NCBI GenBank assembly: GCA_036785375.1
Contig: JAWMAR010000026.1
Span: 7,254,001 to 7,318,000, forward strand
DNA from: Leucoraja ocellata
Lineage: Eukaryota
Direction of reading: 5' to 3'
DNA: 64,000 nucleotides
Part shown: positions 5,281 through 60,917 of the stretch, piece after piece
How positions within the stretch are numbered: the stretch's first letter is position 1
How the letters are laid out: each line of letters begins with the position of its first letter
The notes under the pieces: model-generated
What the model saw: only the letters and a program-made list of their open reading frames with translations
Database searches by the model: none
What the model was told of the DNA's origin: nothing
Made by a program: the position numbers and the translations under genes

Positions 5281-5631
5281 GTGGGTTGACACAGTCCCTG
5301 GTCATTACAACATGGGGGAGGGACAGGCACACTGGGCTGGGACAGATGCCCAGGCTGAGGCCTCATGTGACAGATACATGCAGGGTGGTGAGCTGTCACC
5401 CAGGGGTGGGGGTTCAATGGACAGGATCTGGTCCCACCCCAGGGTGGTGGGTGTGTATTACAGGCTCAGATCCCACCCAGGAGTGGGCTCATGTTGTGTG
5501 GGACTGGCTCCTGGGGAAGATCCCTGGACCTAGCCTCACACTCGACCCTCCTCGACAGCATGGGTCTCACGGAGAGAATGTCTCTGTCCGCCAGGGGGAG
5601 GAACGCTCCAACTGAAGACGACCAATATGCA

Positions 5632-5815
5632 TTTAGTTCAGGTTAGTTTAGAGATACAGCGTGGAAAGAGGCCCTTTGGCCCACCGCGTCCGTGCTGACC
5701 AGCACTCCCTGCACACTACGCTATCCTACACGCACTAGAGACTATTTTTAATTTTGTGCCTGCAAACCTGTATATCTTTGGGGTGTGGACAGTAACTCTA
5801 CCGCTGCACCACCGT
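5632..5815 (-). mobile_element. tRNA-derived V-SINE-like element, internally deleted
   Basis: (TTTAG)n tail followed by agatacagcgtggaaagaggccc. Shares sequence with the SINEs at 33525, 49990 and 62110. Confidence 0.6.
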
Positions 5816-5919
5816 ACAACCCTTTATAATAAACCCATCCAAGGTTTGCGTGGATATCATTTACAGACCGTGCTGTGTTACCTGTGATGCCACTTCTCAA
5901 GTGTCTCAGAACCCCTGCC

Positions 5920-6300
5920 TCTCCAATATCCCCTCCTCAGCTCTGCCTTACCTTTCCCCCCTCAGCCCTCCTTCTCTCCCTTTCTTTCCCCTCTCTGCCT
6001 CTTCTCCCTCCCTCTGTCCTTCATTGCCTCTCCTTCCCTTTCTCTCCACCTTATTCTCTCCCCTCCCCTGCATCTCCTTCCGTTCCTTGCTCTTTCCCAC
6101 TCTCCTCCTTCCCACGCCCTTCATTCTCCTTTCCTCCCTTTCCCCTTTGCTGTCTTTTCTCGCCTCCTTCCCTTTGTATGGAGGAGAGCTCCCTCTCCTC
6201 TGCTCTCTCTCATTCTCTCTCCTGCCCCTCCCCCTCCCTGTCTCTATCCCTCCTCTACCCCACCCCCTCTCCCACTGGAGTCCATCTCCAGCTGAATTCC
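5920..6300. repeat. CT-rich low-complexity tract
   Basis: Direct inspection. Confidence 0.85.
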
Positions 6301-6737
6301 CTTCCACTCGCATTTCAAATATTTCATCTTCAAAATGAGATCTGGAACTGCCAGCTGCTGCCATCCTCTCCAGTGACATTGAGACTTCTTGCATCCTCTG
6401 AGTTTTAATCAGAGCTGCTCAGCGTTGAATCCTCCTGCTCCATCAGTGGAAGCACTGATTACACACCACCTTTCATTTAGTGGTGAAATCAGATGAGGTT
6501 TCAATATCAATAAATTCATGGCTTTGCGCTACCGTAGCAGCCGTCCTGGCAATGTCAAGGCACGCGGAGTGTGTGCAGACGGTGGGGCCGGTGTGAAGTG
6601 TTGGAAAGGCGGAGACGGAGCAGCAGTTGTACCGAGCTGCCGCCAGCATCAGTTCCTCATGAGCGAGTGATTGTTGGCAGCCCTGAGATGGGCCACAGGC
6701 ACTGGGCAGAACCGCTCCATTCTACCTCCAAACTCTT

Positions 6738-6952
6738 AACCATATAACCATATAACCATATAACAATTACAGCACGGAAACAAGCCATCTCAACCCTTCT
6801 AGTCCGTGCCGAACACATAATCTCCCCTAGTCCCATATACCTGCGCTCAGACCATAACCCTCCATTCCCTTCCCATCCATATAACTATCCAATTTATTTT
6901 TAAATGATAAAAACGAACCTGCCTCCACCACCTTCACTGGAAGCTCATTCCA
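6738..6952 (-). mobile_element. CR1 3' end with (ACCATATA)n tail
   Basis: Three octamer repeats followed by a 3' UTR nearly identical, in reverse complement, to 25661-25781. Confidence 0.75.
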
Positions 6953-7134
6953 TTCCTTCTTTCTAGGATCATCTTTCTGGGATCTCTTCCACCCAGAGCC
7001 CAGCGTGACATCTCATCTGGTTTAACAAGGCAGCAATCCCTCAGCACTGGACGCTCAGCCCCGACGACAGGATCAAGTCTTACTAAACAGTTTGCAATAG
7101 GAGCACTCAGACCAGCTCCACCGCTTAGTAACAT

Positions 7135-7252
7135 GAGTGAAGAAGGGTCTCGACCGAAACATCACCCAGAGATGCTGCCTGTCCCACTTAGTTACTCCAG
7201 TATTTTGTGTCTCTCTTTGGTGTAAACCAGCATGTGCAGTCCCTTCCTACAC
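7135..7252 (+). mobile_element. Short Penelope-type hammerhead-core element with 16-bp TSD
   Basis: GTGAAGAAGGGTCTCGACCGAAACATCACC...TTCCTACAC, flanked by CACC(G/T)CTTAGTAACAT at 7119-7134 and 7253-7268. Confidence 0.7.
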
Positions 7253-7284
7253 CACCTCTTAGTAACATTACGACCGCACTTAAA

Positions 7285-9125
7285 GAGTATTATGTTCAAT
7301 TTTGGTCACATTTAATGGAAAGATGCCATTAAGCTGGAAAGAGTGCAGGGAAGATTTACAAGGATTTTACCAGATTTACGGGGAGAGGTTGGGCATGCGA
7401 TGATTTTATTTCTTGGAGTGGAGGAGGCTGAGGAGTAATCTTGTGGAGGTGTATAAAATCATGAGGGGAATAGATAACCGAATGTAAGGAGTCTTTTACG
7501 CAAGGTTGGTGAATCAAGATCCAGAGGGCATAAGCAAGAGGGAAAAGACTTAATAGGAATCTGAGGGGCAACGTTTTCACACAGAGAGTGGTGGGTATAT
7601 GGAACCAGCTGCCAGACACGAACATTTAAAAGACATTTCGAGAGGCACATTGATAGGAAAGAGTTAGAGGGACATGGGCCAGGGGTGGACAGCTTGGACT
7701 AGCTTAGATAGAGCATCTTGACTGGCATGAACGAGTTGGGTCGAAGGGCCTGTTTCCGTGCTGTACGAATCTATGACTCTATCTCATCTCCTCATTCCCA
7801 ACTACCCCTACCTCCAGTAACCTTTTACCCTTGTTTGTCAAATAAAAAACATTCAAATACCATTTCCACTCCATTTGAAGACAATTCCAAAGACACACAA
7901 TCCTCTGGGAGAAATAAATTGTCTTAGCTCTGCCTCAAATGGGCAAGTCTCTCGTGTCTTCCCTGACAAGACTTCTTAAGATTGTGGATGTTTCAAACAA
8001 ATGGCTTCTCACTGTTCAACACTCCAGCATTATCCAATCTCTCCGCAAAAGACAACCTGCCCATTCCTGAAATTAGGCAGTAAATCTTCTCTGACCTGCT
8101 TCCAATGCATTAACAACCTTCCATAAATAAGAAGGCCAATGCAGGATGCAGTATTCCAGATCTGGTCTCACCAGTGGCCTGCATAACTGAAGCATCACCT
8201 CCCCACTTCTGTACTTAATTTGCCGATAACTAACGATAACATTCTGTTAGATTTTTTAATTGCTTCTCTACTTGCACGCCAGCCTTTGTGAGTCATGTGT
8301 AAGGGCATCTCAGACCTCTGCATACTCACATAATAATGTATCTTCTTTACTGTCACATCACACAGTCCCAGGGCAGGGACAGCACTGGATAAACAGAGTG
8401 AAGCACCCTCTGCACATGCCAGTCGCACACTGTGTAGGCAGGAACTACCGATGCTGGTTTATACCAAGGATAGACACAAAATGCTGGAGTAACTCAACGG
8501 GTCAGGCAGCATCCCTGGAGAAAAGGACCAGGTGACGTTTCGGGTCGGAACCCTTCTTCAGACTGTCACACACTCCTGTGGCAAGATTGCATGGGTTAGA
8601 ACATAGACAGCGCAGCACAGGAACAGGCCCTTCGGCCCACGATGTCCGTGCCAAAATGACGCCTATTTAAATGAATGTCCTCTGCCTGCACGTGATCCAT
8701 ATCCTTCCATTCTCCTGCATATCCATATGTCATCTAAAAGCCTCTTAAATGTCACTATCATATCTGCCTCGACCACCATCCCTGGCAGCACATTGCAGAC
8801 GTCTGTCACTCTCAGTGTAAAACACATATCCTGTACATCTTCTTTCAGCTTTGTCCTTCTCACCATAAAGTTGTGTCATCTAGTTCTTGATGTTTCCACC
8901 CTGGGAAAAAGGTTCTAACTGTCTACCCTATCTACACCGCTCATAGTTTAATATACTCCCAGTAGGCTCCCCTCAATCTCCAGTGTTTCAGAGAAAACAA
9001 TCCAAGTCTGTCCAAACTCATCTGATAGCTGGTAACCTCGATCCAGGCAGCACCCTGTTAACCCCTTCTGAATCCTTTCCAAAGCCCCCCCATCCTTCCT
9101 GTAACGGGGCGACCACAACTATACA
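7285..9125. mobile_element. Cluster of older CR1 3' fragments (7285-7780 +, ~7900-8330 -, ~8597-9125 -)
   Basis: Recurrent CR1 RT C-terminal and 3' UTR motifs (ttcacacagagagtggtgggtatatggaac; gaagggcctgtttccgtgctgta). Confidence 0.65.
8432..8564 (-). mobile_element. Short Penelope-type hammerhead-core element with 10-bp TSD
   Basis: Reverse complement starts AGTCTGAAGAAGGGTTCCGACCCGAAACGTCACC. Flanked by GTC(G/A)CACACT at 8422-8431 and 8565-8574. Confidence 0.75.
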
Positions 9126-12100
9126 CAGCCGGACAGAATCGGTCTTTGTTTCAAACCAGCATCTGCAGTTCCTTCCTACACATAGAATTCTATACAGCTG
9201 CAGTTGTATAATGGGTTAGGTAATGTTTTAATTTGAATGAAAATCAAATATTGTGAATATATTAATATTAGACTGTGTATGAGCCTGTCCTGTCCCAGTT
9301 CCCCAGCTACTGGTGAGGGTGGAGGGGTTGAGTGACTGGGAGCTGGAGCCTGGTACATGCTGCCGATAATCCCCCTCTGGGTGACACTGTGGAACTCAGC
9401 CTTGGCTGTTATCTCCACATTTACCTCATCAAAACATTCAGACAGGTGAGTCAAACAGGATTTGCTTTTAATAAATCTCTGCTGGTGCTGTTTTATTAAA
9501 TCTGACTTCTCCAGATTCCTGTTATTTGTTTTCCTGATTAATGTTTCTAAAAGCTTTCCAATCTCACAACGTGCTCCCTGAAACCTCTGCAACTAAGCTG
9601 AGCCACCTCGCCCAGACTGGTGGGGCCACACACTGTGTCAGGGCCATGACGGGATCAATGCAGTCCTTGGGCCAGTGTCTGGTTCGGATTGACCCCGGTT
9701 GGAGTCAGTATCAGTGCAGGTGTTCATTTTATACGTGCCCAAGGGATGAAGACCTAGTCTGTTCAAATATCAGAGTCACAGCACAGAAACATGCCCTTCG
9801 GCCCAACTCATCCATGCCGACCAAGATGCTCCATCTACACTAGTCCAATTTGCCTGCGTTTGGTCCATATCACTCTAAACCTTTCCTACCCATGTACCTG
9901 TCCAAAGATAGACACAAAAAGCCAGAGTAACTCAGTGGGTCAGACAGCATCCCTGGAGAAAAGGAATTGGTGACGTTTTGGGTCAAGACTCTTCTTCAGA
10001 CCTGTCCTAAGGTCTTTCACATGTTGTTACTGTGCCTGCCTCAACTCCCTCCTCTGGCAGTTCGTCCATACACTCAACTTTCTATAAAGCAAATCCTAAC
10101 CCAACACACTCTGTGTGAACAAGAGCTCTGTCTTTATAGCAGAATTGAATTATCTTTTAATTCACGCACAGGATGCATCACCATAAACCACGGCTTGGTT
10201 GGGCAACAGCTCTGCCCAAGAGCACAAGAAATTGCAGTTGTGGATGTAGCCTAGTACATCACACAGACCAGACTCCCCTCATCAATTCCACCTACACTTC
10301 ACACTGCCTTGAGAAAGCAACCAACATAATCAAGGACCACTCACATCCCCCCTTCTCCCCTTCCCGTCGGGCAGAGGATAAAAAGCTAAAAAGCACCTAC
10401 CACCAAATTCAAGAGTAGCTTCCTTCCCAGTGTTATCAGACAACTGACTGGTCCACCCATTAGCTGGGGTCTCGACCCTAGCTCCCAACCTACCACATTA
10501 CAGCCCTTGCATTTTTTAAAGGGCACCTTTTCTCTGTAACCCTGCCATAACACTGTCACTATATTTGGCTGTCTGGTATTTTCCTCGATGCATTACCTGT
10601 TGTGCTTGCGTATGGCTTGATTGTCCTCATGTATAGAATGTTTTTTTCCGTATACATGGCCATAACAAACCAGTGCCAATACTAATACATGAAGCTCAGG
10701 ATGAACAGCCATGATAAATACAACAATAAACATTACGACAAGTGCAACAACAGCAGAATGGTGTATGACAGCAGTTCAAAGTGGCCACCACCTTCAATTC
10801 AAGGAGCCTCCCAAACCCCTTCATTCTCTTCCATTTATTTTCCACAGGGACCCTTTCCCATCTTGGGCTCACTCAACATTTAGGAATATAGGAGTAGGCC
10901 GTTTAACCCTCTTTAATCTTATGCACCATTCAGCAAGATCCCAGCTAATTGTCAGTCAACTCATGCACCCATCTTTTCCCATATCCCTTAATCCCTGTGG
11001 TTGACACAAACCTATCATTCACAGGGGAGTACCAAAGAACTGCAGATGCTGGGGCAAAACACAAAGTGCTGGATGAACTCAGCAGGTCAGACAGCACCTG
11101 TGGACAGAATGAACTGACGACAATTTGAGTCAAAACCCTTCTTCATCTGATTACCTATCAATCACACAGGAGGTTCACCTTCATCATTCTCTGTGTTCCA
11201 AACTTCACTCTGAAAACATCAATGTTTAATCACAACTGATGTAAAATCTGCAAATCTTCAAACACATAATATTGTATTCAAATTCTGAAAAACACAGCCA
11301 TGAATGCAAGCCTAGGGAAGGAGACACCATCTGGTGAACCTAAGTTTAATGCAGAGACACATCACAGGGACCATGTTCTAATCAAGAGGCGTCTATTCCA
11401 TGCATACTTTATAACTGCAGATGGCGTGAAATTTGGATCAGTGATGCCCCTATTTGGGGTGATGAATATGCTGCTGGAACACATGGCACAGTTTTGAATC
11501 AATTGAGCTGGTGCCATAGTGTTGAAGGTAAACAGAACACTCATGAATGCAACCAGATGGTGACACCAGTTGGGCGGGCTTTGTTGTGACAATCCCACTC
11601 CCTCCCCTCCCTTGGGCATTGTAATCTCTTCACTCGCCTCTTATGGGTTTGCTGCTGACTGCTGCTTTGTTGTTTCAACTTGCACCAGTGATCAGACCTG
11701 CCCAGAACACAGAGCCCCAAAGGACCCAAACACGGAATAAGCCACTGAACTCGGGAGAGTGACTGCCCTCGGCATCAAGGCAGCCTGCGACTGTGTGGCC
11801 TGAACGAGTGGTAAGGCTGAACGCAGTGGGCAGCAAAAGGGAAAGCAGCGATTAGAGCCATTCTCTCTGTGATCTGCTGACTCCCAGTTCAGCTTCCCCT
11901 CTAGGAGGACAGGCAGATCCACCTGCAGCAACTATCCCCATCCTTTGTATGGCAAAGGCTTGTTGGACCAGTAGCACACTTCACCAGTTGATCTGCCAGC
12001 AACAGTTAATTTTGTTCAGTGCGTCTCCTTGGGAACAGTCTGTAGAGTCCAGAGTTATACAACTCCTTGAGGTGCACCTCGATACACACCCTTTCCAGAT

Positions 12101-13809: not shown

Positions 13810-14540
13810 GGAAATGTACACCCACCCCCACCCTACACCACCCCCACCCCGACACCCACACATACACTTTCATTCACCCTACCCCCACATGCAGACCCTC
13901 ATTTAAACTCTCTCGCAACACAAAACCTCACATACACATACATATACACTCCCACACACTCCCCCCTCACACACCCCCACACACTCTCCACACTCAATGT
14001 GCACACACGCCCAATCCACCCCACACCTACCCTACCCCATACACACTCCGCCCCACAACCACACCACACCCATCCCACCACATCTCCACCCCACACCCAC
14101 CCACCCCACACCCACCCCACACACCCCGCATCCATCCCACAACCACACCGCACCTACCCCACCCTATACCACACCCACCCACACCCATCCCACACCGACC
14201 CTGCCGCACACCCACCCCATCCACACACCCACCCTGCCACATACCTAGCCCGCCACACACCCAGTCCGCTACACCCAGCCAACCCCACCACACGCACCCC
14301 ACACATTCACATACCCCACTCACACAAACACCGTCAGGGAAACCACCCCACACACACCATCACACGTCCAGTACACACACACCCTACACACACACACCCT
14401 CACACTCACCACCCACACCCACTCTCAGATACTCCCTTACAGACAGACTCGCGAACTCTCCCTCACAGACAGGCACACACCCCACAGACAGACACACCAA
14501 TACCTGCCCCACAGACACACACACACACACACCCTGTGGC
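13810..14540. repeat. CA/CCA-rich low-complexity tract
   Basis: Direct inspection; source of the His/Pro/Thr ORFs. Confidence 0.9.
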
Positions 14541-15850: not shown

Positions 15851-17137
15851 GGGCCACCTGACCCGGATCGATGCCCAACCACATGCCCTCAATCTGGTCA
15901 GGAGGCAAGTGTTGGGTCGATTGGTTGATGTTAATCTTGCATTTGATGGTCTTGGAGGGAGGAGATGGATGAGCAAAGGGAAAATAATTTGCAGAGGGGA
16001 ATTGCGACTGGGTCCAGGTAACAGTTTTTGAAGGAACAATAAAATGATTTTGTGGGAATGGACTAAAAGAGAGACAGAGAGATGCCAAGAGTACTGAGGA
16101 GAGATAAAGATGAGACATGACAGAACAAGGGACAGAACCAAATACTGATGTGTTGATATCTGCTGCCTGCAGACTGAATTAAATGATGAAATTCAGAAAA
16201 AACGCTGCGATTTTAGCAGGACATCAATCAATTCCTCTCTTTTTAATAAGAAATGGTGAAATGAGAAAGCCAGCAAGAATCCGAATTGAACTATAAACCC
16301 GTAGACGTGTAGCAAGGAAACTATTCACTGGTTAATATGAATTCTTTATAAACTGAGGTGAGAGAAATTATTCTGGAGAATAATAAACTGCCAGAAAAAT
16401 CAAACAAATATTTTCTTTCTGCCTTCAACAAAGGAGGCACAGAAAACTTCCAAGAAGCAGTGAAGGACTGAAGTGAATGAGGAGCTCAAAGAAATCAGCA
16501 GCAATAACAACAATCAGAAGTGAAGAAATGAATGGGAGTGGAAGGCAATACATTGTGGGTCTGCTGCCCGGCAGCCAAGGTTTTGAAGAAAGTGACAATG
16601 AAAATAATGGGTGAAGCACAAAGTACAGGTGAACTCAGCGGGTCAGGCAGCATCTGTGCAAGGTATGGACAGATAATGTTTCGGGTTGGCACCCTTCTTC
16701 AGACTGACGGAGTAGGGGGGAGAAAGGTGGAAAAGAGAGGTGGGGGCAGGACAAAACCTGGCAAATGATAGGTTGATCCAGGTGGGGAGGCTGGGGGTGT
16801 GATTGATAGATGGGTGGAGTATGAGACAAAGGCTAGAGATGAAAAGGAGACAAAAGGATATCAGATGAGGAGGAGTGAATGTAAAGCCAGGCGAAGGATA
16901 TGGGTGGAAGGGGACAGGGGTGTCTTGGTTGTCACCTTCCAAAATTCAGTTAAAAAGCAAATAAAATAAACAAAATATATTGTAATGTATCTACAACAGG
17001 GAATGGTGCTGAGCCTCAGTGGTTCACAATGGTATTATTGATTAGGATGAGAGAACCAGGGACACTATATGGAAGTTTGCTCACGACAATGAAAGTGGGT
17101 TGCCTCATGGAAGCAGAGAAGTGGGAAGGAGGCAGAT

Positions 17138-22915: not shown

Positions 22916-23419
22916 TGTTCTCACTCTGACGAAACCTACCTCGCAACCCTATTACCCTCACTCCAGAGATGTTGCCCTTTGCCTCTAATATCACTGCAGG
23001 AGATATCTCTTGGTTGCCAGGAGCAACAGACGATGAAGATGATGTGGAATGGGCCGATGTGAAGTGCATCTCAGTCTAAATCTCGCTATCAGGCTAATGC
23101 TGCAATTTTAAATTTTAATTGAATGCTCAGAGGGATGGAATTTGTTTAAATCACAAATTAATAATTGAAGGAAAGAACCTCATAGTGAGAACGATAATGA
23201 AAAAGTGAAAAGCAATATTTGTATTTAATATATTTCTGAGGCTTCTCACCTTTACTCTATTGCTAACTATGCTGTCCCTAAGCATGGAGTGTGTGACAGG
23301 AAAGAGTACAGCGAGCTCTTCTCTGGAATCAGTTGTATTTCAAATGTCATTAAAATATCTTTACTTACAGCTACAAATAATCAACAACTAAATTTAAATT
23401 AAATTAATTTAAATTAAAT

Positions 23420-23546
23420 CTGAAGAAGGACCTCGACCCGAAACATCATCCATTCCTTCTCTCCAGAGATGCTACCTGTCCCGTTGAGTTACTGCACATT
23501 TTGTGTCTACCTTTGATTTAAACCAGCATCTGCAGTTCTTTCCTAC
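23420..23546 (+). mobile_element. Short Penelope-type hammerhead-core element with 9-bp TSD
   Basis: CTGAAGAAGGACCTCGACCCGAAACATCATCC...TTTCCTAC, flanked by AAATTAAAT at 23411-23419 and 23547-23555. Confidence 0.7.
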
Positions 23547-23739
23547 AAATTAAATTTAAATGTTGTCTCAGCATGGAAACAGGACCATCGACCTATCTTA
23601 TCCTTGCAGCCTTTCTTAAACAGAGGTACAAGATTGGCCACTCTCCTGTCTTCTGGCACTTCATTCGTGTTTAACGACGGTGCATATATCTCTGGTAGGA
23701 TTCCTGCAATTTCTTCTCTAGCTTCTTTGGATATACCAG

Positions 23740-24290: not shown

Positions 24291-25660
24291 CATATACTGG
24301 TCAGGTCTGGAAGATTTAGCCGCTTTGAAGCATGTTAAACCAACCAGCATTTCCTAATACAGACCATCCTCAAGACATTACCATTAACTTAAAAATAAAC
24401 TCTGTCCTGGAGGAATAACTCAGTGGGACAGGCAGCATCTCTGGTGATCATGGATAAGTGACATTTCTGGTCGGGTCCCTACTTCAAACCTGAAACGTCA
24501 CCAATCCATGTCCTGCAGAGATGCTGCCTGGCCCGCTGAGCTACTCCAGCACTGTCATTTATTTGTATAAACCAGCATCTGCAGTTCTTTGTACCACCAC
24601 TAACTAAGTTCCCTACTCTTCATGTTCTTCTCCACACTAAAAACAGAGTAATATTAATTGAGGACCTTGCCCATCTGCTGCGGCTCCACAACACTTTGGT
24701 TTCTGAGGTGCCCTATTCTCACTCTGGTTACCCTCATTCCATTAATGTGAAATCTCTCTGCATCCAGGGTACAATCCACCTCCTTTGGTACTGAGCTATG
24801 CCGTGAGCCAGCCAGGACCATGCTTTCCATGTCTAGGATCACCAAGGCATGAATGTATCCTAGAAAGAGGGGCAGGCAGTCAGCTCGGACAGGCCACCCA
24901 GGATCCTACTGCCTGGGCCTGTGAATGGTCACCATAGAACAGATTACCGAGGAAATCCCTGACCCATCAGTCAGAAGAAGGGTTCATCATCGGTGAAAAC
25001 ATTAACGACGGAGTGGTGCTGGTTTACAACGGGAACAGTGACAGACGCACCACACATCTCTGTCCTCCAGCTCCTGCGGATTTCTGCCGCTGGAGGTATA
25101 GGATTTTGGTGTGTGTGCTTTATCATCATTCCTTACAATGCTACCGTACGACAGTGATCGCAACTTCTACTGAAGTGTGGGTGGCCGTTGGCTCGCTAGA
25201 AGCTCATCTGCCCTTTGACTGGTCTTGTTTTTGGTCCTGCTCTGGGTCCACAGCCTCCTGCTCACCGGGCAAACCAGGTGGGGGAGACAGTTTAGTCGCC
25301 GACTACCCGACCATGGAGCAGGTAGCACGGGATTACATGGTTCCCATGGCGGGGGGAACTCCCCCGACCTGACAAGAAAAGAAGGGCCCTGACATGAAAT
25401 ATCATCTGTCCATTCCATCTGCAGATGAAGGAATGTATGAAACATTATAGGATACCTAGGTACAGTGAAATGGTTTGTTTTGCATACAACCTAAGCCCTA
25501 CGCAAGTGTCGTCACATGTTGCCGCTGACCAAGTTAAAATTGTACCGAAGTCTTCTCCACTATCTGCTGCCACATGTGGGAGGAGCACCATCCTGTTCCC
25601 CCTATGCCCCCCCACCCCACCCCCTGCTGCCCCCCCCCCCCTCCCCCCCCCATTGTTCTC

Positions 25661-28710: not shown

Positions 28711-31700
28711 GTAAAGAATGATTTCTAATGATCAACTGCCCCTCAGGAGTGTGAATTACATTAGATTAGGATTCTATTAAATGGTCTGTGTTTCTTGAGG
28801 CAGTATCACCACAGAATGAAGCTAGGTGGAGTGGACTAAAATGGAAAATGGCTGGAACAGTTGACCAGCGATGAGTCGCTAATCAAAAGTGAAATGATGC
28901 AAGGTCCATATTTTAATTAAAAACGTGTGGAAATATGAATGTGGTGGCTTGTTCTCCCATTCAGAATGACATGGGAACAAGATTTGGTATCAATTTCAAT
29001 TATTTACTGCTTTGAAAGATTCCTACTTTCATTTGGATTAAGTGCTGATCCATCCTTATTGTAATTTAAAAAGTATACAGTACTGCAATTCCACCTCTCC
29101 TGTGCAGCAGACAAAACTCTTAACTGCAACTCTCTCTGATCCTCTTCCTTGATAGCTAGTGGAAATACTTTCAAGGGGCTATGGCAGCTCACTGCCATCT
29201 TCATAAGGGCGAAGGATAATACATGCTGGTTGTGATGTCCAGATCATCAGCCATGAAGTAAATAGTTTTGGTTTATTTTGTCATGTGTACAGAGGTACAG
29301 TGAAAAGCTCTGTTTTTGCATGCTCTCCCAGCAGGTCTGATCTACGATACATTATACAATTGATAATAAATAATTATAAATACAAGGTAGACAATGCCAG
29401 AGTAACTTGGTGGGTCAGGGTTATGACTTAAGCTCGTGTATTCTGTTTCTCCCGAAATGCTGCCTGACCCACTGAGTTACTCCAGCATTTTGTATCTATC
29501 TTTGTTTTAAAAACCCACACCTGCAGTTCCTTCCTACACAATCAAGTATATAATAGCAAAGTGAAAGATGTAGAATGCGTTCTGCGAGCAAGATTGAGCA
29601 CACAGTAAACCTCCCCGCTGTGCAACGTGATTGAGTTTTGAGATTGTGGGATGATTCTTGGGTGAGACACAGGTAGCAACTTCTGCATTTCGAATTGTTT
29701 CTTGAAGACGTTACATCCAGGAGACAGCAGTAGTGACAGATTATCATCAATGATAGGCAGCCTTGTCAGAGCCGGAGTGGGGAGCCCGACGGGGGGCCCT
29801 GTGGTAGCTGACACCTTGAGTACTGCTGGGGTGTGCCCCTTGGTGCTGGCACCTCCAATGTTCGGGTGGCTCTGATCCTCCTCTTGATTCCTGCTGCCTG
29901 GATTGAGATTCTTACCAATAGATGCAGTGATTGGTCAGCAGTTGGCCCACCTCCCCAAGTGTCTCTGCTGCCAGATCTGGCTGGAATTCCACCTGTTTCC
30001 TCTACAGAATCGCTTGCATTTTGGCCTTGCTCTACTGCTGTGCTTGGGTGTGCCCTGTATATCTTCTGCTGGTCCCTTGTTCTGCTGAGTAGTCTGCTGC
30101 TCAGCCCTGGTGAGATACTGCACAGCACAAGTGAGTTGCATCAGCATGATTGCAGCAATATAACTTCTGCAATCACTTCAAAATTCCTCCCAGCAGGTCA
30201 ATGTTTAATCTAAACATGAAACTCATTTGCTTGATTGCCTGTGGTGTTTGCCCTGGTTTGGAATTCAGCAAGCTACTTTTAACTAGACACCAACCTCCTA
30301 GGCCACTAGGGGGAGGGGGGGAGGGAGAAAGAAGTGCTTGTCACCAGTTACTGCTCTGTGCTGGGCTGTCCCTCACACTTGCTGCCAATACTCGGATATA
30401 GTCTTCAAGCTGCACCAGAGCCATCTCTCCAGCTCACAAAAATGCTGGAGTAATTCTGGCAGCATCTCTGGTGAGAAGGAATGGGTGACGTTTCGCGTTG
30501 AGACCCTTCTTCAGACTTTCTTACACATCTCTCCGGCTCGTTGGGTTGCCACCAGAAGGATCTTTGGGCAGCATTTATTCCTGGTGGAGATAATTGTCTC
30601 CAATTGAGCTTGAACCCTCTCTTCCCCCATTCTGAGCAGATGTTTGCTGAATAATAAATGTGGTAATCAAGGAGGCCTTCAACTCTCTCGCCCACCCTCC
30701 TGTGGTAAGCTACAATCTCCTGCCACACCATCCTCCAAGCAAGATGGTCACTGCATGGGGTGCTTCATCTTACAATGTGTAAAGCAGCAGAAATCTGCCA
30801 TGGACCATTTCCAACACAAGTGTACAAACGTCAGTAGGGAAGATCATTTGGTTTTAAGAAGCACCTACACAGCACAGCTCCCAATTGTTTTCCCCCATAG
30901 TTGGTGGAGTTGAGGATAGTTAGGAAACTTGTCGAAATATACAACAGGTGGATCCAATGGATCAGTTGGAAATATGGCCAGAAAAATTGTGGGGTTAATT
31001 TGGGCAAGTGACGTGTTGTGCATTCGGAGGTGAAAAGTCAGGGGAAATGACACAGTATATGGCAGGGTCCTTTGGACCATTGATGTCATGGGATCTCTGA
31101 GTGTAAGCCCTAAGTTCCCTGTTAGTGGTGAGCGGTAAAGAAGGTGCTTAGTATGCTTGCCTTCATTGGTTGCGGTATTCAGTTCAAGTCAGAAAGTCAT
31201 GTTGCAACAGTGTGGATTTTTGGCTAGGCTGCATTTGGAGTATTGTTCTGCTTTCCCCATTACAGGAAGGATGTGGAGACTGTGGAGGGAATGGAAGAGA
31301 TTTATCAGGATGTGTAGTCTGGTTTGAACAGTATTAACTATAAGGAGAGGTTGAGTTGCTTTCTCCACAATGTTGTAAACTGAGGGGTAATCTGATAGGT
31401 TTATAAAATTGCAGGGCATAGATTGGAGCGTCATGGTCATACAACATGGAAATAGGTCCTTTGGACCAACTTGCCTCTTCTGTCCAAAATCCCCCATCTA
31501 CCTGCCCATGTTTGGTCCATATTCCTCTAAACTTTACCTATCCATAGATGGTCAGACATTTTTCAGGAGGCATAGAAGCGTCTCAACCTGAAACAGGACT
31601 CCCGGAACTGTGAAGGTTTTCTCCAGGTGCTCCGGTTTACTCCCCCACTCCATAGATGTACAGGCTTGTAGGTTATTTGGCTTCTGTAAATTGTCCCTAT

Positions 31701-33830: not shown

Positions 33831-35654
33831 CCTAGGCAACTTTAATCTTCCAATCTAAAGAAACGTTCCTTATCCATGTTCTCCAGGGTTGCTGCCTGTC
33901 CTGCTGAGTTATTCCGGCACTTTTTTTTTGTAGTTCTTTGTTTGTACAACAGTGATTTTCTTTGGGCTGTGACTTTTGAATTGAATAAATGTCATTAGGC
34001 AAGTATGTATACACACAAGGAATTTGCCTAGGGTGCATTGCTCACAAGTAGCATCATGATATACAGTAGACAATTAAAAATAAAACAGTGTAAACTTATG
34101 AAGAATGAAATAAAATAATATATACAATACCGTTTATTTGTCATTTGAACCTCACATGAAGTTCAAACGAAATTTGGTTTCTGCAGTCGTACAAGAAAAG
34201 AACCAAGACACACACCAACACAATTTACACACACATCCATCACAGTGAATCTCCACCTCACTGTGATGGAAGGCAAAGTCTTGTCTCTCCCCTGCTCTCC
34301 ATTCTTCTCCCGAAGTCAAAGTCAAAGCCCCCGGCAGGCGCTAGCAAGTCCGCGGCCATTTAAAGCTGCGCCGGGCGATGTAAGGCCCCGCTCCAGGTCA
34401 CTCTCATACCAGAGCACAAGGAGGCTACAGACGTTTGGCTGTTGAGTAGAGCTACTGCTCATGGGAAAAAAAAGCTGTTTTTATGTCTGGATGTGGCGGC
34501 TTTGACAGTCCGGAGTTGCCTTCCAGAGGGAAGTAATTCAAAGAGTTTGTGGCCAGGGCGAGGGGTCAGAGATGATCTTACCCACTCTCTTCCTGGTCCT
34601 TGCAGTTTGTCGATGGTGGGGGAAGGCTGCAGCCAACAACCTTCTCGGCTGTTCAAATGATGTGCTGATCGAATGGTGCACTATAGTCTTTGGTTTTGCA
34701 CTATTATGGTTACCTAATTACAGTTATTTGTCTCATTTATTATATCTTTACCTATTATTATGGTTATGAATCTGCAGCAAGAAAAAAACCCCCATTGTTC
34801 TGCTGCTGGTACATTTGACAAATAAGCACCCTTGACTCTTTTTCAATAATATTTTTAATTATATTCATGTTGACCTTAAAGGAGATGCTTTATAGAACAC
34901 AGTAACCATCATGCCTGAAAGTTTTTCCCAAGTGATTGATCTTTTGTGTTTTCTGCTATAATTTGTGGGTCATCATCCCCTTTTTCCATTTCAAGTGAAT
35001 AGTGTTGTGCCTCTGGTCCCCACAATGGGTACTGTAACTCAGTCTGATATTCTATTCCCCTCAAGTAGTGTTACTACTTGTTGGTGATTCAGAAGATTGC
35101 TGATGCTGGAATCTAGAGCAAAGCACGAAGTGCAGGAGGAAAACAACGGGTCAGGCAGCATCTATAGAGGTAAATGGACAGATGTTTTGGGTTGCTTCCT
35201 CTTCAGAGGCAGCCTGACCCACTGGGTTCTTCAAGCATTTGTGTTTTGCTCAAGATTTCAGCATCTGTTGTCCCTTGATGACTGGATCAGATTTCAGTAT
35301 CTGATGTTGGAGTGAGTATTGGACAACTCGTTAAGGATGACTCCCTGAGCCATCATGAAATAGGACCATGTGAGTTTCCAGGGGGCCAGGTTTCATGTCT
35401 GCTATGTCAGGTTTACCCAAGTTGAACAAAAGAGAAAATAAACAGAGTGCAGAGTATTGTGTTACATCTTCAGAGAAAATACAAGTAAGAGAAATTTTGA
35501 AAGGTGTGTTTCTGATAGTTCAGTACTCCACTGGAGGGTTGGCGTGAGACTTGAACCCTTTAACTTAAACTCATGGCTGAGAGTAATCCTGAGATGTGGT
35601 TCTTCCAGCCAGGCTGTCTCTTGGAGATTTGGAGATTTCAGAGTTTTTACTGAA

Positions 35655-35842
35655 GATAGACACAAAATGCCGGAGTAACTGAGCGGCACAGGCAGCATCT
35701 CTGGAGAGAAGGAATGGGTGACATTTTGGGTCAGGACCCTCCTTCAGACTGACCCTCCTTCGATGCTGCCTGTCCCGCTGAGTTACTCCAGCATGTTGTG
35801 TCTATCGTTGGTTTAAACCAGCAAATGCAGTTCCTTCCTACT
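35655..35842. mobile_element. Fold-back (inverted pair) of the Penelope-type terminal element
   Basis: GATAGACACAAAATGCCGGAGTAACTGAGCGGCACAGGCAGCATC ... GATGCTGCCTGTCCCGCTGAGTTACTCCAGCATGTTGTGTCTATC. Confidence 0.8.
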
Positions 35843-42311: not shown

Positions 42312-44779
42312 GTAAGTGTCCCTCTCTGGTTACAAGCTGTGGGTTTGAGACAAAGATCTGGAAGGTCGGAGGAAGAGTTACGGGGCTGTTATTGGGGAAG
42401 GGTGGGATGTTTTGGAAGAGGTTTGCACCCAGGAGTTAGTCCTGCAGCCGACCCGTTGTCCACATCCCAGATGACCAGAGCCAAGTTTAAACACGTACTC
42501 AACAGGGGTCAGATGTCTTACCGAGGGAGGTAAAATGGGACTAGCTCAAAATACCTACTTGATCAGCATGGACAAGGTGGACTGAAGGGCCTGTTCCCAT
42601 GCTGTATAGCTAGGTGAATCTGAATTATTAGCTAATTAAACTGCCGTGCAACAATTCTTGTAGTGCAGGAGGCTGAGAAGTGATCTTGTGTATCTATGTA
42701 TAGTAAGATTTCCTGCATTGTATGCCAATGGAATTGCTGTTATAATAGGTGTGGGAGAGTTACGGACTTCATCCTGACAGTCACGGAGCGACACAGCACG
42801 GAGACCGACTGTCTTGTGTGACTCTGTGATATGCTGCAAATATAATTCCTGATCTTCTAACTACATGGGCACTTTTTAAATCTGTAGTTTCTCTGTAGCT
42901 GTAACACAACGTTCTGCACTCTATTTTCTCATTTACACGACCTGATGTACTTGTGTGTAGTTAGACTGGCCTGGATAGCACACAAAATCATGATTTTCAC
43001 TGTGCACGTGACAACGGTAAATCGATACCAACTCTACATCACCCTCTCGAGTCCTGTAAGAAAGATCAATAAAAGACGGGCACCATAGGAGGGACAGCGG
43101 GAGGGAGGGAGAACGGAATGACGAGATTCTTGGTTTAATGTCTACTTTGAGTGACGATATCTTGGACTGCACTCCCTCTTTAATGGACCGAGTACAGAAG
43201 TTGGATCAAGGGTTGGAGTCTCCGGGGAGCTTTAAAGCACCACATTTCTGCCCCAGCGATGAGGGTCAACGTATTGAGCAGGGCTCCTGTTAAATTCATC
43301 TTCTATTTAAGGGGACCTATGACCTGTGCTTTCCGCTACTCGCTGAATTTTCTGTTCAGGAATGTTACTGACTGCTTCTAAACACTTTGGCAGTGCCTCC
43401 TTAATCTTTTTTTTTTCTTTAATGTGGGATTTAATGCTGTGAAACTCGTAGGATTTAAGGTAGTCAGAATTTTCCCTTCCGAACACAAGACCTTGCAGGT
43501 CCCACTTGGCGTGTTCCAGAATCAGATGCAACCTTTCATGATTCTGCATGACTGACAGTTGGTGTGCAGGCTTCTGTGAAGTGAATGTGTGCGATTCTGC
43601 ATCAAAGAGCTTTATCTCGGCAATGTCCCTGGAGAGTCTCAGTTGAAAATCAGACCACAAAGCCCAGGATTAGTGGCGGTGGTTCAGTAGCTTTCTATTT
43701 GTAAGCACATAAAAACCATCTCTGTCCCTTCCTCTGCCAACAGCTCAAAACGTCTGTGGACTGAACCCTTTCAGAACCAGTGTTTAAGATTGGGGCGCGC
43801 ACTCCCTGCGTGAACTTTACACCTGTTTGGTTTATCCCCTCTCTCCCAGCATGCAGGAGCTTGCTATCCCTTGTCTGTTGGTCTACGCGGTCGTTGTCTA
43901 TCCTCTCTCTTAAAAAATTCTATTTTAACCATCTGCAGATTTGCTGATGCTCCTATCTAACTAGCTGTATGTATCACGCACTGCCTTCTGTCATGTACTA
44001 AGTTAGTTATTGCCATTTAATCAATATAATATCCAGCAAATCCTTTATAATTAACGTTGTTTCTTAATAAGTCGTATGGCATGGAAACGGGCTCTTCAGC
44101 CTAAGATAGACACAAAATGCTGGAGTAACTCAGCAGATCAGGCAACCTCTTCCCCAGAGATGAATAGGTGATGTTTCGGGTCGAGACCCTTCTTCAGACT
44201 GTCAGAGGAGAGAGAAACCAGAGGTTTGAAAAGGTACAGAACAGCCCAATACATCCATGCCGGCCAAGATACCCATCTGAGCTACTCCCATTTGGCCCAT
44301 ATTGCTCTAAACCTTTTCTATCCATGTACCTGGCCAAATGTATTTTTCTGGTAGTTCATTCCATTATCCCCACAACCCTCTGTGTGGAAAAAGTTGCCCT
44401 CCAGTTCCTATTTCCCTCAACTTAAACCTGTGCCCCCTCATTCTTGATTCCCCAATCCCTGGAGAAGAAAAAAAACAATGTATTCACCCTGTCTACTCCC
44501 TTCATGTTTTTATACACCTCCATAATGGTTCAATGGTACTTTATTGGCTCCTGTACCTGGGTACAGGGATATTCCTTTGGCATAACATTCAGGAAATCCT
44601 ACTATACATAGGTACATAAGATCACCCCTCAGCCTCCTGTGCTACAAGAATTGTTGCACAGCAGTTAAATTACTGAGCTAATAATTCAGATTCACAGAGC
44701 TATACAGCATGGGAACAGTCCCTTCAGTCCACCTTGTCCATGCTGATCAAGTAGGCATTTTGGGCTAGTCACATTTGCC

Positions 44780-50278: not shown

Positions 50279-51942
50279 ATCTAATAAGGTGGACACACGA
50301 GGATGCTCCTTACAATGTTTAAGCAAGGAGATGTTGGAAGGATGCTTTCTCTGGCTTGTGGGATCTAAACACCATGGTCACAATTTCAAAATGACGGGAT
50401 TTAGGACTCAAATTAGGAGTTTGTAACTTTAGGTTGGCCCTCAGTACCCACAGTGTTTGTTGGCAAGGATTTCCAGGTTTCTGGGCCCTCTATATGGATG
50501 CTGCTTCCTGACCTCTGCTGGGTTCCAGTTTTCAATTTCACCTTCACAGATGCACCATACCTCCCACTGGTGCTTTCTTGTTCAAGGCAACATATTCTAT
50601 CCAATCTATCAGCATTTAAGCCTCAAGCTGGTGAACCCTTCCCCTAAGGCCAGAGCATACATCCTCTGAGATCCAGTGCCTGCCGCGTTGTGCTTTTGAA
50701 CTCAAAAGACTCTCTTAGACTGTTTGTCTTGGCCGGGATCCTGGAGCTTTTGACTGCTGGTCTCAGTGGGCTGGGTTGCCTTTGCTTAAAAACCCACCGA
50801 ATTACCGTTGTTACTTCCAGTCAGATCAGCACAATCCAGTAGTTGGAAGTATTGTTCTGATGTGATCAACAGAAGGCTGCTGTCGTTCTAACGTTAGCCT
50901 TGTTTTGAAGCGGCTGTGTAAAATATCAAAATAGTTCATCTTCGTCACAGAAATTGTGTCCCTAAGGAAAACGTTGCAAACGGGCATGAATTTCATTAAT
51001 GATTTATTGCAGCTAATAAAATCCCAACCAGGCTGATGCAAGGAACTGCAGATGCTGGAATCCTGAGCAAAACGCTGGAGGAACTCAGCAGATCAGGCAG
51101 CATCTTTGGAGGGAATGGACAGACAACGTTTTGGGTTGGAACCCCTTCCACAGACTGATGGAGTTAGTGCGAGAATGTTGGGCAACAGAGGTGGGGGTGG
51201 GGAAAAGCCCAGCAAGTGACAGGTGGATGGTCTGGGTCAGAACATGGTCCAACAACAGGAACCACAGAGGGGGGAGCAGTGAGGGAGGATCACACGGCAG
51301 TGGTGGTTGTGTAGAGAATGGAGAGATGTGGATCTCGTTTGGCACAGACATTGGGCTGAATGGCCTTGTTCTTGTGCTGTATCATTCTATGTTTAAAGTT
51401 GACATACTTTGAGGAGATATTGGGTAGGACTGACAGTTTAAGATAATGCCTGAATCCTCCACTTAATCTGTGGCTGTTGGAAAAACACACTGCATTTAGC
51501 TGAGAGAATAAATAATTTCTTGTGGTTTTAAAAGCTATGTTCAACGATAGCACAGACATGTGTTTTTCACGCCACTGAATGAGTCAGGCGCAGTGAGTGA
51601 AACTTAGATCCTGAGTTGCCGAAATAACTCGGATGTGTGCACATAATCCCACTGGTAACAATGAGGTCATGTTTTGTATTTAGCTTCATCTTTCACATGA
51701 AATGTTATGCTGCGGCTCTCCAGAGTGCACAAAGGTCTCCTTAGAATAAAAAAGAAACCACAGGAGGAGTTCAGCGGGTCGGGCAGCATCTGACCAGACC
51801 TGCTGAGTTCCTCCAGCACTTTGTGTTTTGTTTAAGATTGCAGCATCTGCAGTTTCTTATGTCTCCTTGGAATGTTTTGAAGGGCATGGATATGATCTCC
51901 AGTATGTTGAAACAAGCCACAATCAGTTTTTGTTAGATTGAT

Positions 51943-52073
51943 GTGTAGGAAGGAACTGCAGATGCTGGTTTAAACTGAAGATAGGCGCAATGTTGGAGTA
52001 ACACAGTGGGACAGGAAGCATCTCTAGAGAGAAGGAATGGGTGACGTTTTGGGTTGAGACACTTCTTCAGACT
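51943..52073 (-). mobile_element. Short Penelope-type hammerhead-core element with 7-bp TSD
   Basis: 131 bp, GTGTAGGAAGGAACTGCAG...CTTCTTCAGACT, flanked by GATTGAT at 51936-51942 and 52074-52080. Confidence 0.75.
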
Positions 52074-52448: not shown

Positions 52449-53789
52449 TCCTCAAAGTATTCCTAATGTACCATATATAACATTTAAGGGACATTTGGGG
52501 TACTATCATAAAATGTAACCTTTATGAGACGTTTGGCCGGGTGCATGCATAGGTACGGTTTAGAGGGTTATGGACCAAGCACGGGCCCTTACATTATTGA
52601 AATCATGTCCTGGTATAACTGAGCAAAATGCAGCACCTAACTGGCATTCCATTTGGCATTCTTTGGCTCATTTGCCCAGCTGATGAAAACCCCACTCTTG
52701 TTAATGATGATACCATCTATTTTAGTGTCATCTGCAAACTTACTAATGGTGCCTTGTCTGCTCTCATATGAATCATTGATATTGATATCGTTGACATAGG
52801 ATGTGAGCAGAATTAATTATTTGAAACCATTTAACTGCCCACCCTTATTCTCAAGGTTTAAAATTAACTGTGTTACAAATATATTTCAGGAGGAAGAGAA
52901 TGCGATCCATTTATAACCTGCAGAATACATTAGCGTCTGACTCATTCAGCCGATCCTGTCAACGAGTCATATATACCATCTAAAAATCAATGCACTCTCT
53001 GAATGGCCAATATCCAGTATTTATACAGAGATAATAAAACATAATTAGAGCGGGACCCTTTTGTGTGAAAAGGTTAACAAGCCTGGCAGAAAAATTGCAC
53101 GTTGTGAAATTTTTATTGACTGCTAATCCTTTGCCCCTTTACCCTCTAGTGAAATTAGATTTCATAAGTATGCTCATAAAGTGCGGCGGAAAGCTGCTAA
53201 CAAGGCCAGTGCTGACCTGTGCTCTGGACTAGTCGACGTGATGACTGCTTCTGGGGCGATCCGTGCATCTGAGTCCTCTCGTCAGTCCCTACCTACCGCC
53301 TCACTGTTACCGTGTCTTTAACCAGGCCCTGGGTTTCCTCCCGCAAGGTTCCGTATTATAAACGAGGCAATTCCTCGAGTCTACTTTGGTCCACAGAGCA
53401 CATTCTCCCCATCACTTTCCCTACAACTGATTCTCCTCATAATCCTGTCAACTCCCCACCTCCCCCTGGATTCTAGCCCTCGCCTACACACAAGGGACAA
53501 TTTACCGCGGACAATTAATCCACTGTCCCACAAGTCTTTGGGAAGTGGGAGGAAACCTGCTGTGGGAATCCCCCTTGCTCATAGAGAGATGTGCAAATTG
53601 TACACAGACGTGTCACGTTGGGAGTGCTGTGACTTTATTTGCACCCCCTTTACACCAACACCTTCCCCCTCCCTGGGCCGTGCACAACCCAACCCAAACC
53701 TGCTCAATCTTCCCTCGGTTTTAATTTGTTCTGAGGATCGACTTGCTGTAGGCAGAGCTGTTTCAAAGCCAAATTGTGATGCTTCCATA

Positions 53790-54125
53790 TAGATATACAC
53801 AAAATGCTGGAGTAACTCAGGGGGGCATCACTGGAGAGAAGGAATGGGTGACGTTTTGGGTCAAGACCCTTCTTCCGACTGAGAATCGGGGAGAGAGAGA
53901 AATGAGATATGGAATGGTACAAAGAACATGGAAGGTGTGAAAAGAACAGGTCAAGGAAATGTACTCCCGGATGAGGGGAAAGTGATGACGAGGTATACAA
54001 TCCGTAACATTAATAAGGAGGACTGAAACTAGAAGGGTGGGGGAGGGATGGAGACAGAGGGAAAGCAGTGATTTCTTGAAGTTAGAGAAATCAATATTCA
54101 TTCCGCTGGCAATATTCATCCCGAT
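53790..54125 (-). mobile_element. Penelope-like 3' end (ORF terminus GMNIDFSNFK, UTR and hammerhead-core terminal repeat)
   Basis: The minus-strand peptide ..SGMNIDFSNFK is followed by a pyrimidine-rich UTR and the same terminal motif, linking the short element to Penelope bodies. Confidence 0.65.
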
Positions 54126-58600: not shown

Positions 58601-60917
58601 TAACTCCTCTCTTTGCTAGTTACCTACATTAAGGGGTAACACCTACAGTGAACAATTGTCCAACTTGCACATGTGGGAGGTATCCGGGAAACGGGCACAG
58701 TCACAGGGAGAACATGCAAACTCCACACAGACAGCACACGAGGGCAGGATCAATCCCGGATGCATGTGGTGACATGGCAGTGCCTCTAACTACTTGGCAC
58801 CAATCTATTACTGTTGTTTGGAAGGGGCAGTCCCAATAAACTGTCTATAGTCGGGGATAGTGTACGTTAGATGCAAAGCGAAACCATATCAACACCGTCC
58901 TGTCTCGCACTCCCAGAGAGAAGATGCCAATGGTTAGACTCTGTGTGAAGCTTCCTCTTCTCGGCCCCATCAAAAGCTCGAGTTGCTCAGTTTTACAGCT
59001 GCATTGAGCCCTACTTGCAATGTCTGAAAGATGCTGATTTCTAGTCAAACAGGCCCTTCCACCCAACTCATCCACGCTGACCCTGTGCTAATTCCACATG
59101 CCCACGTTTGGCTCGTATCCCTCAACCTTTCCTATCCATGTACCTGTCCAAATATAATTTAAATATTGTTATTGTACCAGCCTCAACTACTTATCTTGGC
59201 AACTTGTCCCACATACCCACCACCCTCTATCAGAACGTTGCCCCTTTAAATCTCTCCAATCTCATCTTAAACCCTTGCCTTCTAGTTTTATATTTTTCTC
59301 CCATGGGGAAAAAATCTGACCATTCACCTTTTCCATGAATCTTGTGATCTTGTACCTGCACTGCAGCCTGAAAGTTGTTCTATAGAGGAGTGGTCGCTTT
59401 GAAGGATCCAGAGGAGGACTGTTCAAATGCTGGCGATCGATTCACTTTGGAAGCTCCTGTGGGAATGGGTGCTTGCGGAGTTTAAGTCGTGAGGGGAAGT
59501 GTAGAAAGCTGTGGACCTGAGCTTCCCTTATCTCATCTTGCGCTCAATGCGAGACTGTCTGAACTTTAATGCTGCGATTAGTCAATACTTCTATGATTCC
59601 ATTCTGTGATTACCAAACTCAGGGTGACCCTTGTACATTTGTTACCCAAACCTTCCCATCCTGCTGCTTTCTCAGAAAGCTTTGATGTAAATAATTAGCA
59701 TATTATCGATGCAGTGTGGCTGGTCATTGCTCATAACTTTAACTCGTCTCTTGCAAGATTGCAACTCCCCTCGACACCCTCTCTGGTGCGTTGTATCTTT
59801 CCTGCAGTGGGCTGACCAGAACTCCACACAGCACTCCACCTATGGTGTAACCAATGTTGAATGCAATGCCAGCGTTGCCTGCTGCTCTTATGCCATGTCT
59901 CAGCCAGGACTCTTTGTTATGCTGATTGTTATGTACACCAGGGTGTAATGCAATTCCATGAAGCTCAGAGTAAACAGTATACATACCACGGAGACACAAG
60001 GAACTACAAATGCTGGTTTACATGAATCGCAGAAAGTGCTAGAGTAACTCTGGATCAAGCGGGCGTTCCTCACACTGTAATTTCACTACACCCAGGTGTA
60101 TGTGACTAATAAAGAAACCTTTGAACCTGTTAGCTACTTGCCCGTTTTGGTATCATCAGTAATTGTGGCTCATACATTTTGGCTCGGATCATTAATATAC
60201 CACAAAACGTTCAGAGCAAGAAATAAACTGCAGAAGGAAGTCAGCGGGCCGGGCAGCAACTATGGAGCGAGTAGACCCATTCCAACGTCTCGGGTTGGGA
60301 CTCTTCTTCGGACCTAGAAGTAAATGATTGAAGCAGTGGTTGGTTCAGGAAACAATGAGTCTGTCAGGAAGGTCCGGCTTGTGGATTTTGGGAAAGAGAT
60401 AGGGTTGGAGGCTGCAGAGGGGGAGATTGCCAGAGCTGATAAGATCTGTGTTGGTCTGGGATGTAATGACCTGGTGTTCATCACTGGGGACATGGTCATG
60501 GTATGAGAAGGCGTGTGAAGGAAATTCCTGACATAAAATATCACCTGTCCATTCCCTCCAAGATGCTGCCTGACCTCCTGAGTTCCTCCAGCACTTTGTG
60601 TTTTGCTCATGATTTCAGCATCTGCAGTTTCCTGTGTCTACAAACATTCAGAGCCCGATCCCGAGTCCTACCGCACACCATCCTCTGTCACAAGTTCTCA
60701 CTGATAATAACCATCAGCTGTCGCCATGACCCCATTATGAATCCCACTTGCTGCACTCCCTGGGCATTTACTGTCCGGGTCAATCTGCAGTCTGGCTTTT
60801 GTTGAATGTCATGTGTTACAATCCGCTTATATGGAGGAGCTGTGATACCAGGCACCTGTAACTCACACTGACTGTTTTCTCTCTCCCTCCCTCCCTCTCT
60901 CCCCCAAACCTCGGAAG

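Follow-up and report, generated by a model that had tools for sequence, protein, structure and literature searches.

Short copies of a Penelope-like element terminus in Leucoraja ocellata have 5' ends concentrated at the edge of a predicted hammerhead ribozyme

The window analysed here is a 64,000-nt stretch of Leucoraja ocellata contig JAWMAR010000026.1 (positions 7,254,001 to 7,318,000). A preliminary description, made from the sequence alone, had pointed out an abundant repeat that begins with a hammerhead-like core. The focal copy (Table 1) lies on the minus strand, and its sequence agrees with the preliminary description. The unit was numbered from the first A of AGTCTGAAG as +1, which corresponds to position 8564 in the focal copy. 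Several of the copies listed in that description are not solo units. Among the 15 window copies that reach the core, five run 5' into PLE (Penelope-like element) 3'-UTR-like sequence (16704, 36327, 44199, 51155 and 53879) and two are arms of head-to-head pairs (24489 and 35749). A remnant of PLE reverse transcriptase (RT) was detected in the decayed insertion by tblastn (60584-60348, E 7e-8). The window also holds ordinary tandem arrays at 26658-27057 (22-bp unit x18), 3254-3424 (CT-rich) and 14002-14274 (CA/C-rich).

Table 1. Copies of the unit in the window and parts of the focal copy. TSD, target-site duplication.
Feature	Position	Strand	Basis or remark
Focal copy, complete terminal unit of a putative Neptune-type PLE pseudo-LTR, with tail	8432..8564	-	profile match; version of the unit found 3' of PLE ORFs
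Predicted minimal type I hammerhead	8531..8563	-	sequence
Predicted hammerhead, core	8561-8555	-	
Predicted hammerhead, stem II	8553-8542	-	
Predicted hammerhead, GAAA	8541-8538	-	
Predicted hammerhead, palindrome	to 8535	-	
Predicted cut	between 8534 and 8533	-	stem I of 2 bp
Optional tail of ~30-35 nt between two putative RT start sites	8432..8465 (boundary approximate)	-	bimodal 3' ends; short/long pair asymmetry
TSD of focal copy, copy 1	8422..8431		10 bp, 1 mismatch
TSD of focal copy, copy 2	8565..8574		
Solo, tail, internal deletion	7135..7252	+	16-17 bp TSD
Solo without tail	9902..10001	-	12 bp TSD
Older-subfamily copy, ~180 nt 5' extension	16613..16885	-	extension pyrimidine-rich, common to one other locus
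Solo with tail	23419..23547	+	AT-rich target
Head-to-head pair, one short and one tailed arm	24393..24590		arms 24489-24393 minus, 24487-24590 plus
Solo without tail	30439..30516	-	14 bp TSD
Head-to-head pair	35643..35841		arms 35749-35643 minus, 35757-35841 plus
Copy with short 5' extension	44096..44199	-	extension ~25-40 nt
Older-subfamily copy with 5' extension	51039..51155	-	
Solo with tail	51943..52073	-	7 bp TSD
Copy with ~35 nt 5' extension, without tail	53789..53879	-	
Decayed PLE insertion	60214..60631	-	inverted tailed unit 60513-60631; RT remnant; tail-less unit 60313-60214

A first profile, built on four window copies, gave 39 matches in the window and none in the reversed window. 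The second-round profile gave 41 window matches, about one per 1.6 kb, and the earlier count of roughly 20 copies at one per 3 kb was an undercount. The genome sample consisted of 101 stretches from the largest contigs: the window, four neighbouring and 96 arbitrarily placed 10-kb pieces. In its 1,064,000 bases the second-round profile found 504 matches covering 4.3% of the bases, or one unit per 2.1 kb, and no match was found in the reversed sample. Extrapolation to the 3.44 Gb assembly gives about 1.6 million unit fragments, a rough figure because large contigs supplied the sample and near-identical locus pairs are numerous in the assembly. Such pairs (C26:7262432/C26:6884040, L105/L106 and L203/L204) lie a few hundred kb to 1 Mb apart on one contig, or on different contigs, which suggests that both haplotypes or duplicated segments are present in the assembly.

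The 100-133 bp unit is the 3' terminus, that is the pseudo-LTR (pLTR) end, of Penelope-like elements, which appear by their motifs to be of Neptune type. Some copies extend upstream by over 1 kb and there enter coding sequence. A genome search with that coding piece returned 30 loci, all of which end in a version of the unit. For a second search the query was the ORF end associated with the window-type unit, and 29 of the 30 loci obtained end in that unit; both sets contain near-identical duplicate loci. The unit was thus located 3' of an RT/GIY-YIG ORF in 59 of 60 loci combined, and near-full-length copies have it 5' of the ORF too. The Penelope origin suggested in the preliminary description was confirmed, the unit being the native 3' end of ORF-bearing PLE copies. 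Among 30 loci that contain the 5' region of the ORF, eight (five of them independent) have the unit passing directly into that region, and it is therefore the end of a pLTR.

Locus L135 contains an 895-aa open frame matching RVT_1 (E 2.5e-6) and GIY-YIG (E 0.006), both below the Pfam cut-offs. Its translation shows a DKG motif, a CX4CX2C linker and a CCHH-type endonuclease (EN); the locus has an inverted 5' piece, and only one of its ends bears a tail. The ORF of L135 type has 1,757 homologues at E<=1e-30, and the most identical named ones are from sharks and rays (62-73%). One stingray protein named as a host kinase-domain isoform (P0072) matches the PLE ORF over 71% of the query and is probably PLE sequence absorbed into a gene model. 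Following the definitions in the accessible part of PMC8557442, the ORF would be of Neptune or Nematis type. Features of EN+ PLEs found here were a single ORF of RT with C-terminal GIY-YIG, the CX2-5CxxC linker, CCHH in the EN, DKG, a partial tandem pLTR, an inverted 5'-truncated copy and a 30-40 bp tail at one end.

For the analysis of ends, 263 matches reaching +6 or further with flank were collected and 42 were dropped for poor core match. The remaining 221 core-reaching copies comprised 81 solo, 83 extended, 53 inverted and four tandem copies. Clustering of the 187 copies that reach +88 gave four subfamilies.

At the level of sequence pattern the preliminary description mapped the hammerhead correctly, as the minimal type I form whose helix III is palindromic. 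It matches the minimal PLE hammerhead in the accessible part of PMC4209133, including the extra nucleotide after A9, the G-C first pair of stem II and the palindromic helix III; stem II has 4-5 bp here versus 7-8 bp in the schistosome motifs of that paper. None of 11 core columns differs among the four subfamilies, and the differences in stems I and II change Watson-Crick pairs to wobble pairs. The preliminary description had named a core no more conserved than its flanks as evidence against its proposal, and half of this was found: the core is invariant across subfamilies, yet so is most of +45 to +89. Variable columns numbered six of 45 at +45 to +89 versus four of 30 at +2 to +31, an equal conservation. 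In 16 hand-picked copies 92.6% of stem cells were paired, almost all changes being Watson-Crick to wobble, and the covariation score was 0.202 versus 0.210 in shuffled data (323 of 500 shuffles as high).

In extended copies the predicted stem I gains two more pairs past a 2x2 loop through positions -3 and -2, and these are lost in solos. Just 26 of the 221 core-reaching copies keep core, stem II and palindrome all strictly intact, and the copy at 8432 is the one such case in the window. For the minimal motifs in the literature, cleavage is weak and occurs in dimers or with protein. No hammerhead match at E<=10 was found in an Rfam scan, a scan that is uninformative for minimal motifs without helix III. 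An alternative cut 5' of the core was rejected by hand, as stems I and III do not pair. Rare core dimers, which are 33-34 nt tandem duplications of the hammerhead core segment, were seen at L135:7788-7842 (in RNA reads) and L044:4877-4927. A 66-nt minisatellite (L101:1052-1484, L159:4646-5418 and 6610-6836, L254, L256) represents +24 to +90 of the unit without the first half of the core; it is the best-supported joint among those listed from the RNA reads.

All five target-site duplications (TSDs) named in the preliminary description were present on re-inspection. They measure 16 bp with one mismatch (7119/7253), 10 bp with one mismatch (8422/8565), 12 bp with one mismatch (~9890/10001), 9 bp inside an AT-rich repeat and hence ambiguous (23411/23547) and 7 bp (51936/52074). 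TSDs of 8-17 bp (score >=8) were detected at 21 of 95 candidate solos versus 1% of 400 shuffled pairings, and the variable TSD length noted earlier was borne out. The single fixed 3' end was not: there are two, at about +95 to +105 and about +126 to +133, and the 30-35 nt between them constitute the tail. In all tailed copies a CCAGCA motif lies about 15-20 nt upstream of each 3' end, at +78 to +83 and +108 to +113, and both copies of the motif are complementary to +53 to +58. The duplicated CCAGCA may be an RT start signal.

Inverted pairs were predominantly head-to-head (75 versus six tail-to-tail in the genome sample). One short and one long 3' end occurred together in 48 of 61 classifiable head-to-head pairs, against an expectation of 30.8, and none of 10,000 shuffles reached 48; 14 pairs with one arm ending before +85 were left out of this classing. 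This agrees with the tail at one end only, a PLE trait according to the accessible part of PMC8557442. One arm begins at +6 or earlier in 48 of 75 pairs.

The 5' ends were concentrated at one place. In 130 of the 221 core-reaching copies the 5' end lies no more than about 5 nt from the core's 5' edge, several times the rate at neighbouring positions, and the ends are thus not scattered randomly. When references were extended 150 nt upstream (273 copies, with a stricter scoring that undercounts extension), 93 of the 134 copies at risk ended at -4 to +5, a rate of 0.077 per nt. The rate was 0.031 per nt at +6 to +10, 0.011-0.018 at +11 to +50 and 0.005-0.027 upstream. At the predicted cleavage site (+30 to +35) no peak of 5' ends was found, the rate being 0.008 and 0.011 per nt in the two end maps, and the preliminary description was right in placing the start just upstream of the core and away from the cut. 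In the youngest subfamily 18 of 34 copies end at the hot spot, and only one of the 16 that pass it ends within the next 90 nt. Starts defined by TSDs fall at -3 to +4 in 19 of 21 copies. Where TSDs reach into +1 to +4, nine of 13 share 1-3 nt with the template.

The sequence that abuts this edge resembles a 3' splice site. YAG is found at -1 to +2 in 63 of 83 extended copies and the pyrimidine content upstream of the unit is 0.72-0.81, while the upstream sequences differ among subfamilies in length and letters. The reading as an intron end rests on motifs and analogy, because no intron-skipping joint was found among those listed from two sets of RNA reads (15 of 99 joints and 15 of 596) and no intron-less genomic copy, with ORF-end sequence beside the core, occurred among the 221. 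Such copies are expected to be absent if PLEs retain introns. A short anchored test for spliced-template copies gave two of 81 versus a null of 0.75%, and a donor-like GT that overlaps the stop codon may be a by-product. In the RNA reads the unit was found on both strands, consistent with passive transcription, and read starts and ends were uninformative. In the reads from a related species, between 4,500 and 7,200 per run have loose ends at +1, which reflects the same genomic junctions and not RNA starts.

Some further readings of the 5' ends were rejected. A G-quadruplex stall in the cDNA of the C-rich tract predicts ends at -10 to -30, which is not so in the youngest subfamily. The strength of the competing hairpin does not separate solo from extended copies. 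A stop at the cleavage site is at odds with the lack of a peak there.

We consider it probable that the solo copies are the shortest insertion products of PLEs, with reverse transcription initiated at one or the other of two internal sites and halted where the predicted hammerhead has its 5' edge. By comparison with the Anolis PLE in the accessible part of PMC11167929, the RT/GIY-YIG protein would nick the target and prime cDNA at about +100 or +133 on uncleaved RNA. Priming on either DNA strand would generate pairs with one short and one tailed arm. The cDNA may stop at a barrier to RT where a structured, protein-bound ribozyme domain meets the polypyrimidine-YAG tract, a step to which we assign about an even chance within this explanation; the tract would correspond to a 3' splice site, as in the Drosophila virilis Penelope intron. 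Joining of the cDNA to the target would follow, in many cases through 1-3 nt of microhomology. Solo copies are likely inactive, dead on arrival, because they have lost stem I's outer half and have no dimer partner. The ORF linkage, the TSDs, the two 3' ends, the head-to-head pairs and the hot spot at about -4 to +5 were directly seen. Against the same explanation stands the small number of solos with a detectable TSD (21 of 95), and old-subfamily "solos" whose upstream homology went undetected may inflate the hot spot.

A more specific and distinctly tentative proposal is that the hammerhead 5' edge, at a retained 3' splice site, acts as a programmed strong-stop for the Penelope reverse transcriptase. 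The ribozyme domain would be a structural RNP boundary and not a cutter, and together with two-strand priming at the tail sites this might account for pLTRs, inverted pairs and about a million stubs (about 4% of the genome).

Alternatively, the RNA itself might begin at about +1, through an Inr-like YCAGT start or through 5'-to-3' exonuclease trimming to the protein-protected ribozyme domain, with RT running off to give strong-stop-like cDNA from master pLTRs. The distribution of 5' ends fits such a short RNA, with a peak at +1/-1, a shoulder downstream and a fall-off upstream. The initiator consensus is YYANWYY, and the context of +1 fits it. The in vitro behaviour of PLE RT, which initiates internally and copies to the RNA 5' end, is also as this alternative requires (PMC11167929, accessible part). 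However, copying of a cap would leave an extra G before +1, and the G frequency there was 15-20% versus a background of about 22%. Of the five independent direct 5' pLTRs, just one has its start at the core. These two results speak against a main start site at +1. In addition, the D. virilis start lies 46 nt upstream of the intron and not at the ribozyme (PMC2377424, accessible part), and read starts do not pile up at +1, although fragmented libraries are poor for such a signal. A short RNA made from a minor start or by exonuclease trimming is a real rival to the stop of cDNA synthesis, but on balance we regard the short-RNA origin as rather unlikely.

The preliminary description had proposed independent mobilisation of the module as a non-coding, SINE-like or retrozyme-like unit. 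In such a model the solos would themselves serve as source elements moved in trans by the PLE protein. The ends that look fixed, the TSDs and the very high copy number are in keeping with this, and solos and pairs make up a larger part of the window-type subfamily (56 of 78) than of any other. Non-autonomous PLE derivatives exist, such as MRC1 (PMC8557442, accessible part), and Xenopus retrozymes are related to pLTRs (bioRxiv 10.64898/2026.07.22.740005). However, the unit is the native PLE 3' end, and an independent SINE would have subfamilies without autonomous members, while all four clusters contain solo, extended and inverted copies. Solo or extended labels of nearest neighbours agreed at 0.458 versus 0.496 by chance (p=0.84, n=142), a test with the limited resolution of 88 columns of decayed copies, and a result that is compatible with short transcripts from the same master elements. 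Divergence was similar in solo and extended copies of the main subfamily (0.074 versus 0.070), and the exact 8432 variant is not solo-only, three of its 18 genome matches being extended. A retrozyme consists of tandem repeats, each unit with its own hammerhead, and its monomer is delimited by the cleavage site. Here only four of 221 copies are tandem, the 66-nt derivative lacks the first half of the core, and the ends lie away from the cleavage site. On a promoter of its own at the 5' end, as a SINE would have, the observations point both ways, with an Inr-like context but no cap-G signal. The predicted fold of the monomer is a competing +6 to +43 hairpin, with a stem I probability of 0.00. 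The unit as a separate jumping element is therefore not supported, and we consider self-propagating solos very improbable.

That the hot spot is an ascertainment artefact, produced by random 5' truncation with upstream homology missed as the upstream sequence differs between subfamilies, is extremely improbable and already largely refuted. In its favour, the profile begins at +2, and a second test showed 25 of 107 copies at first classed as solo to be extended. Against it, the TSD-defined boundaries lie at -3 to +4 in 19 of 21 copies, and the hot spot persists both with the references extended upstream and in the youngest subfamily, where the upstream is well sampled.

The GIY-YIG family search of the genome also returned a different PLE family, without this unit (L091:3735-7843, L092, L094-L097, L099, L101 and L103; G000 C353, C922, C1, C2032, C1427, C198, C525 and C3262). 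Its 759-aa RT + GIY-YIG frames, many of them intact and almost the same in sequence, stand in tandem arrays; an upstream ORF of 600-640 aa has a weak GDSL/SGNH match (E 0.0035), and the 3' ends of the family pass into (CCCTAA)n repeats. It resembles a two-ORF PLE with an endonuclease and with telomeric repeats as its target. A literature search found no paper clearly on such an element, and this family is possibly more novel than the hammerhead-edge unit.

The repeat is not a new class of mobile element. Published work already covers PLEs and their minimal hammerheads, single copies that are truncated, inverted pLTRs and tails, and the present family is a further member of this kind with an extreme copy number and one testable feature. 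The hammerhead pattern is the same as that of metazoan PLE pLTRs in the accessible part of Cervera and de la Pena 2014 (PMC4209133). The density is far higher here, although few units are strictly intact (26/221), than the 4,000-9,000 motifs given there for coelacanth and Xenopus, and the sharp 5'-end hot spot is not described for PLE pLTR hammerheads in that part of the paper. The accessible part of Frangieh et al. 2024 (PMC11167929) describes Anolis PAc, a Poseidon element, with two RT start sites about 100-150 nt past the hammerhead, a 30-40 bp tail, uncleaved RNA as insertion substrate and extension of both DNA strands, as in the explanation preferred here. PAc differs in its clade and in an ORF that starts inside the ribozyme; here the ORF has a Neptune-type Zn linker and the frame of the unit is not kept between subfamilies. 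In the D. virilis Penelope pLTR the intron's 3' end abuts hammerhead helix I (PMC2377424; PMC4209133). In the present family the hammerhead is abutted by 120-300 nt of pyrimidine-rich sequence with YAG at its end; splicing has been demonstrated for the D. virilis element, and for this unit it is a conjecture. Non-LTR retrozymes (accessible part of PMC7229834; bioRxiv 10.64898/2026.07.22.740005) are likewise short, non-coding and pLTR-related with a type I hammerhead. Unlike the dispersed, rarely tandem unit described here, which starts away from the cut site, they are tandem with a ribozyme per unit and form circular RNA; pLTR-derived retrozyme monomers are discussed in the bioRxiv paper. Penelope is recorded in the whale shark genome (PMC8455134), and further related literature includes PMC6765202, PMC6155905 and PMC8969392, all as far as their accessible parts go. 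The search of the literature found no paper on this unit family, nor any on a hot spot of truncation at the hammerhead. Repbase or Dfam may well have an entry for the family already, and the coverage plot in Fig. S2 of the PAc paper may already contain a similar 5' pile-up.

According to the accessible parts of PMC8557442 and PMC4209133, the role that the hammerhead has in EN+ PLEs and intron retention by PLEs are open questions. On these, hundreds of thousands of natural insertion junctions point at one boundary on the nucleotide scale, to which the existing in vitro PLE assay is applicable. The asymmetry of short and long arms in the pairs gives genomic support, from a second clade, for the in vitro model of two start sites and two strands. 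For genome annotation, about 4% of the sampled sequence is PLE terminus and is open to mislabelling as SINE or unknown.
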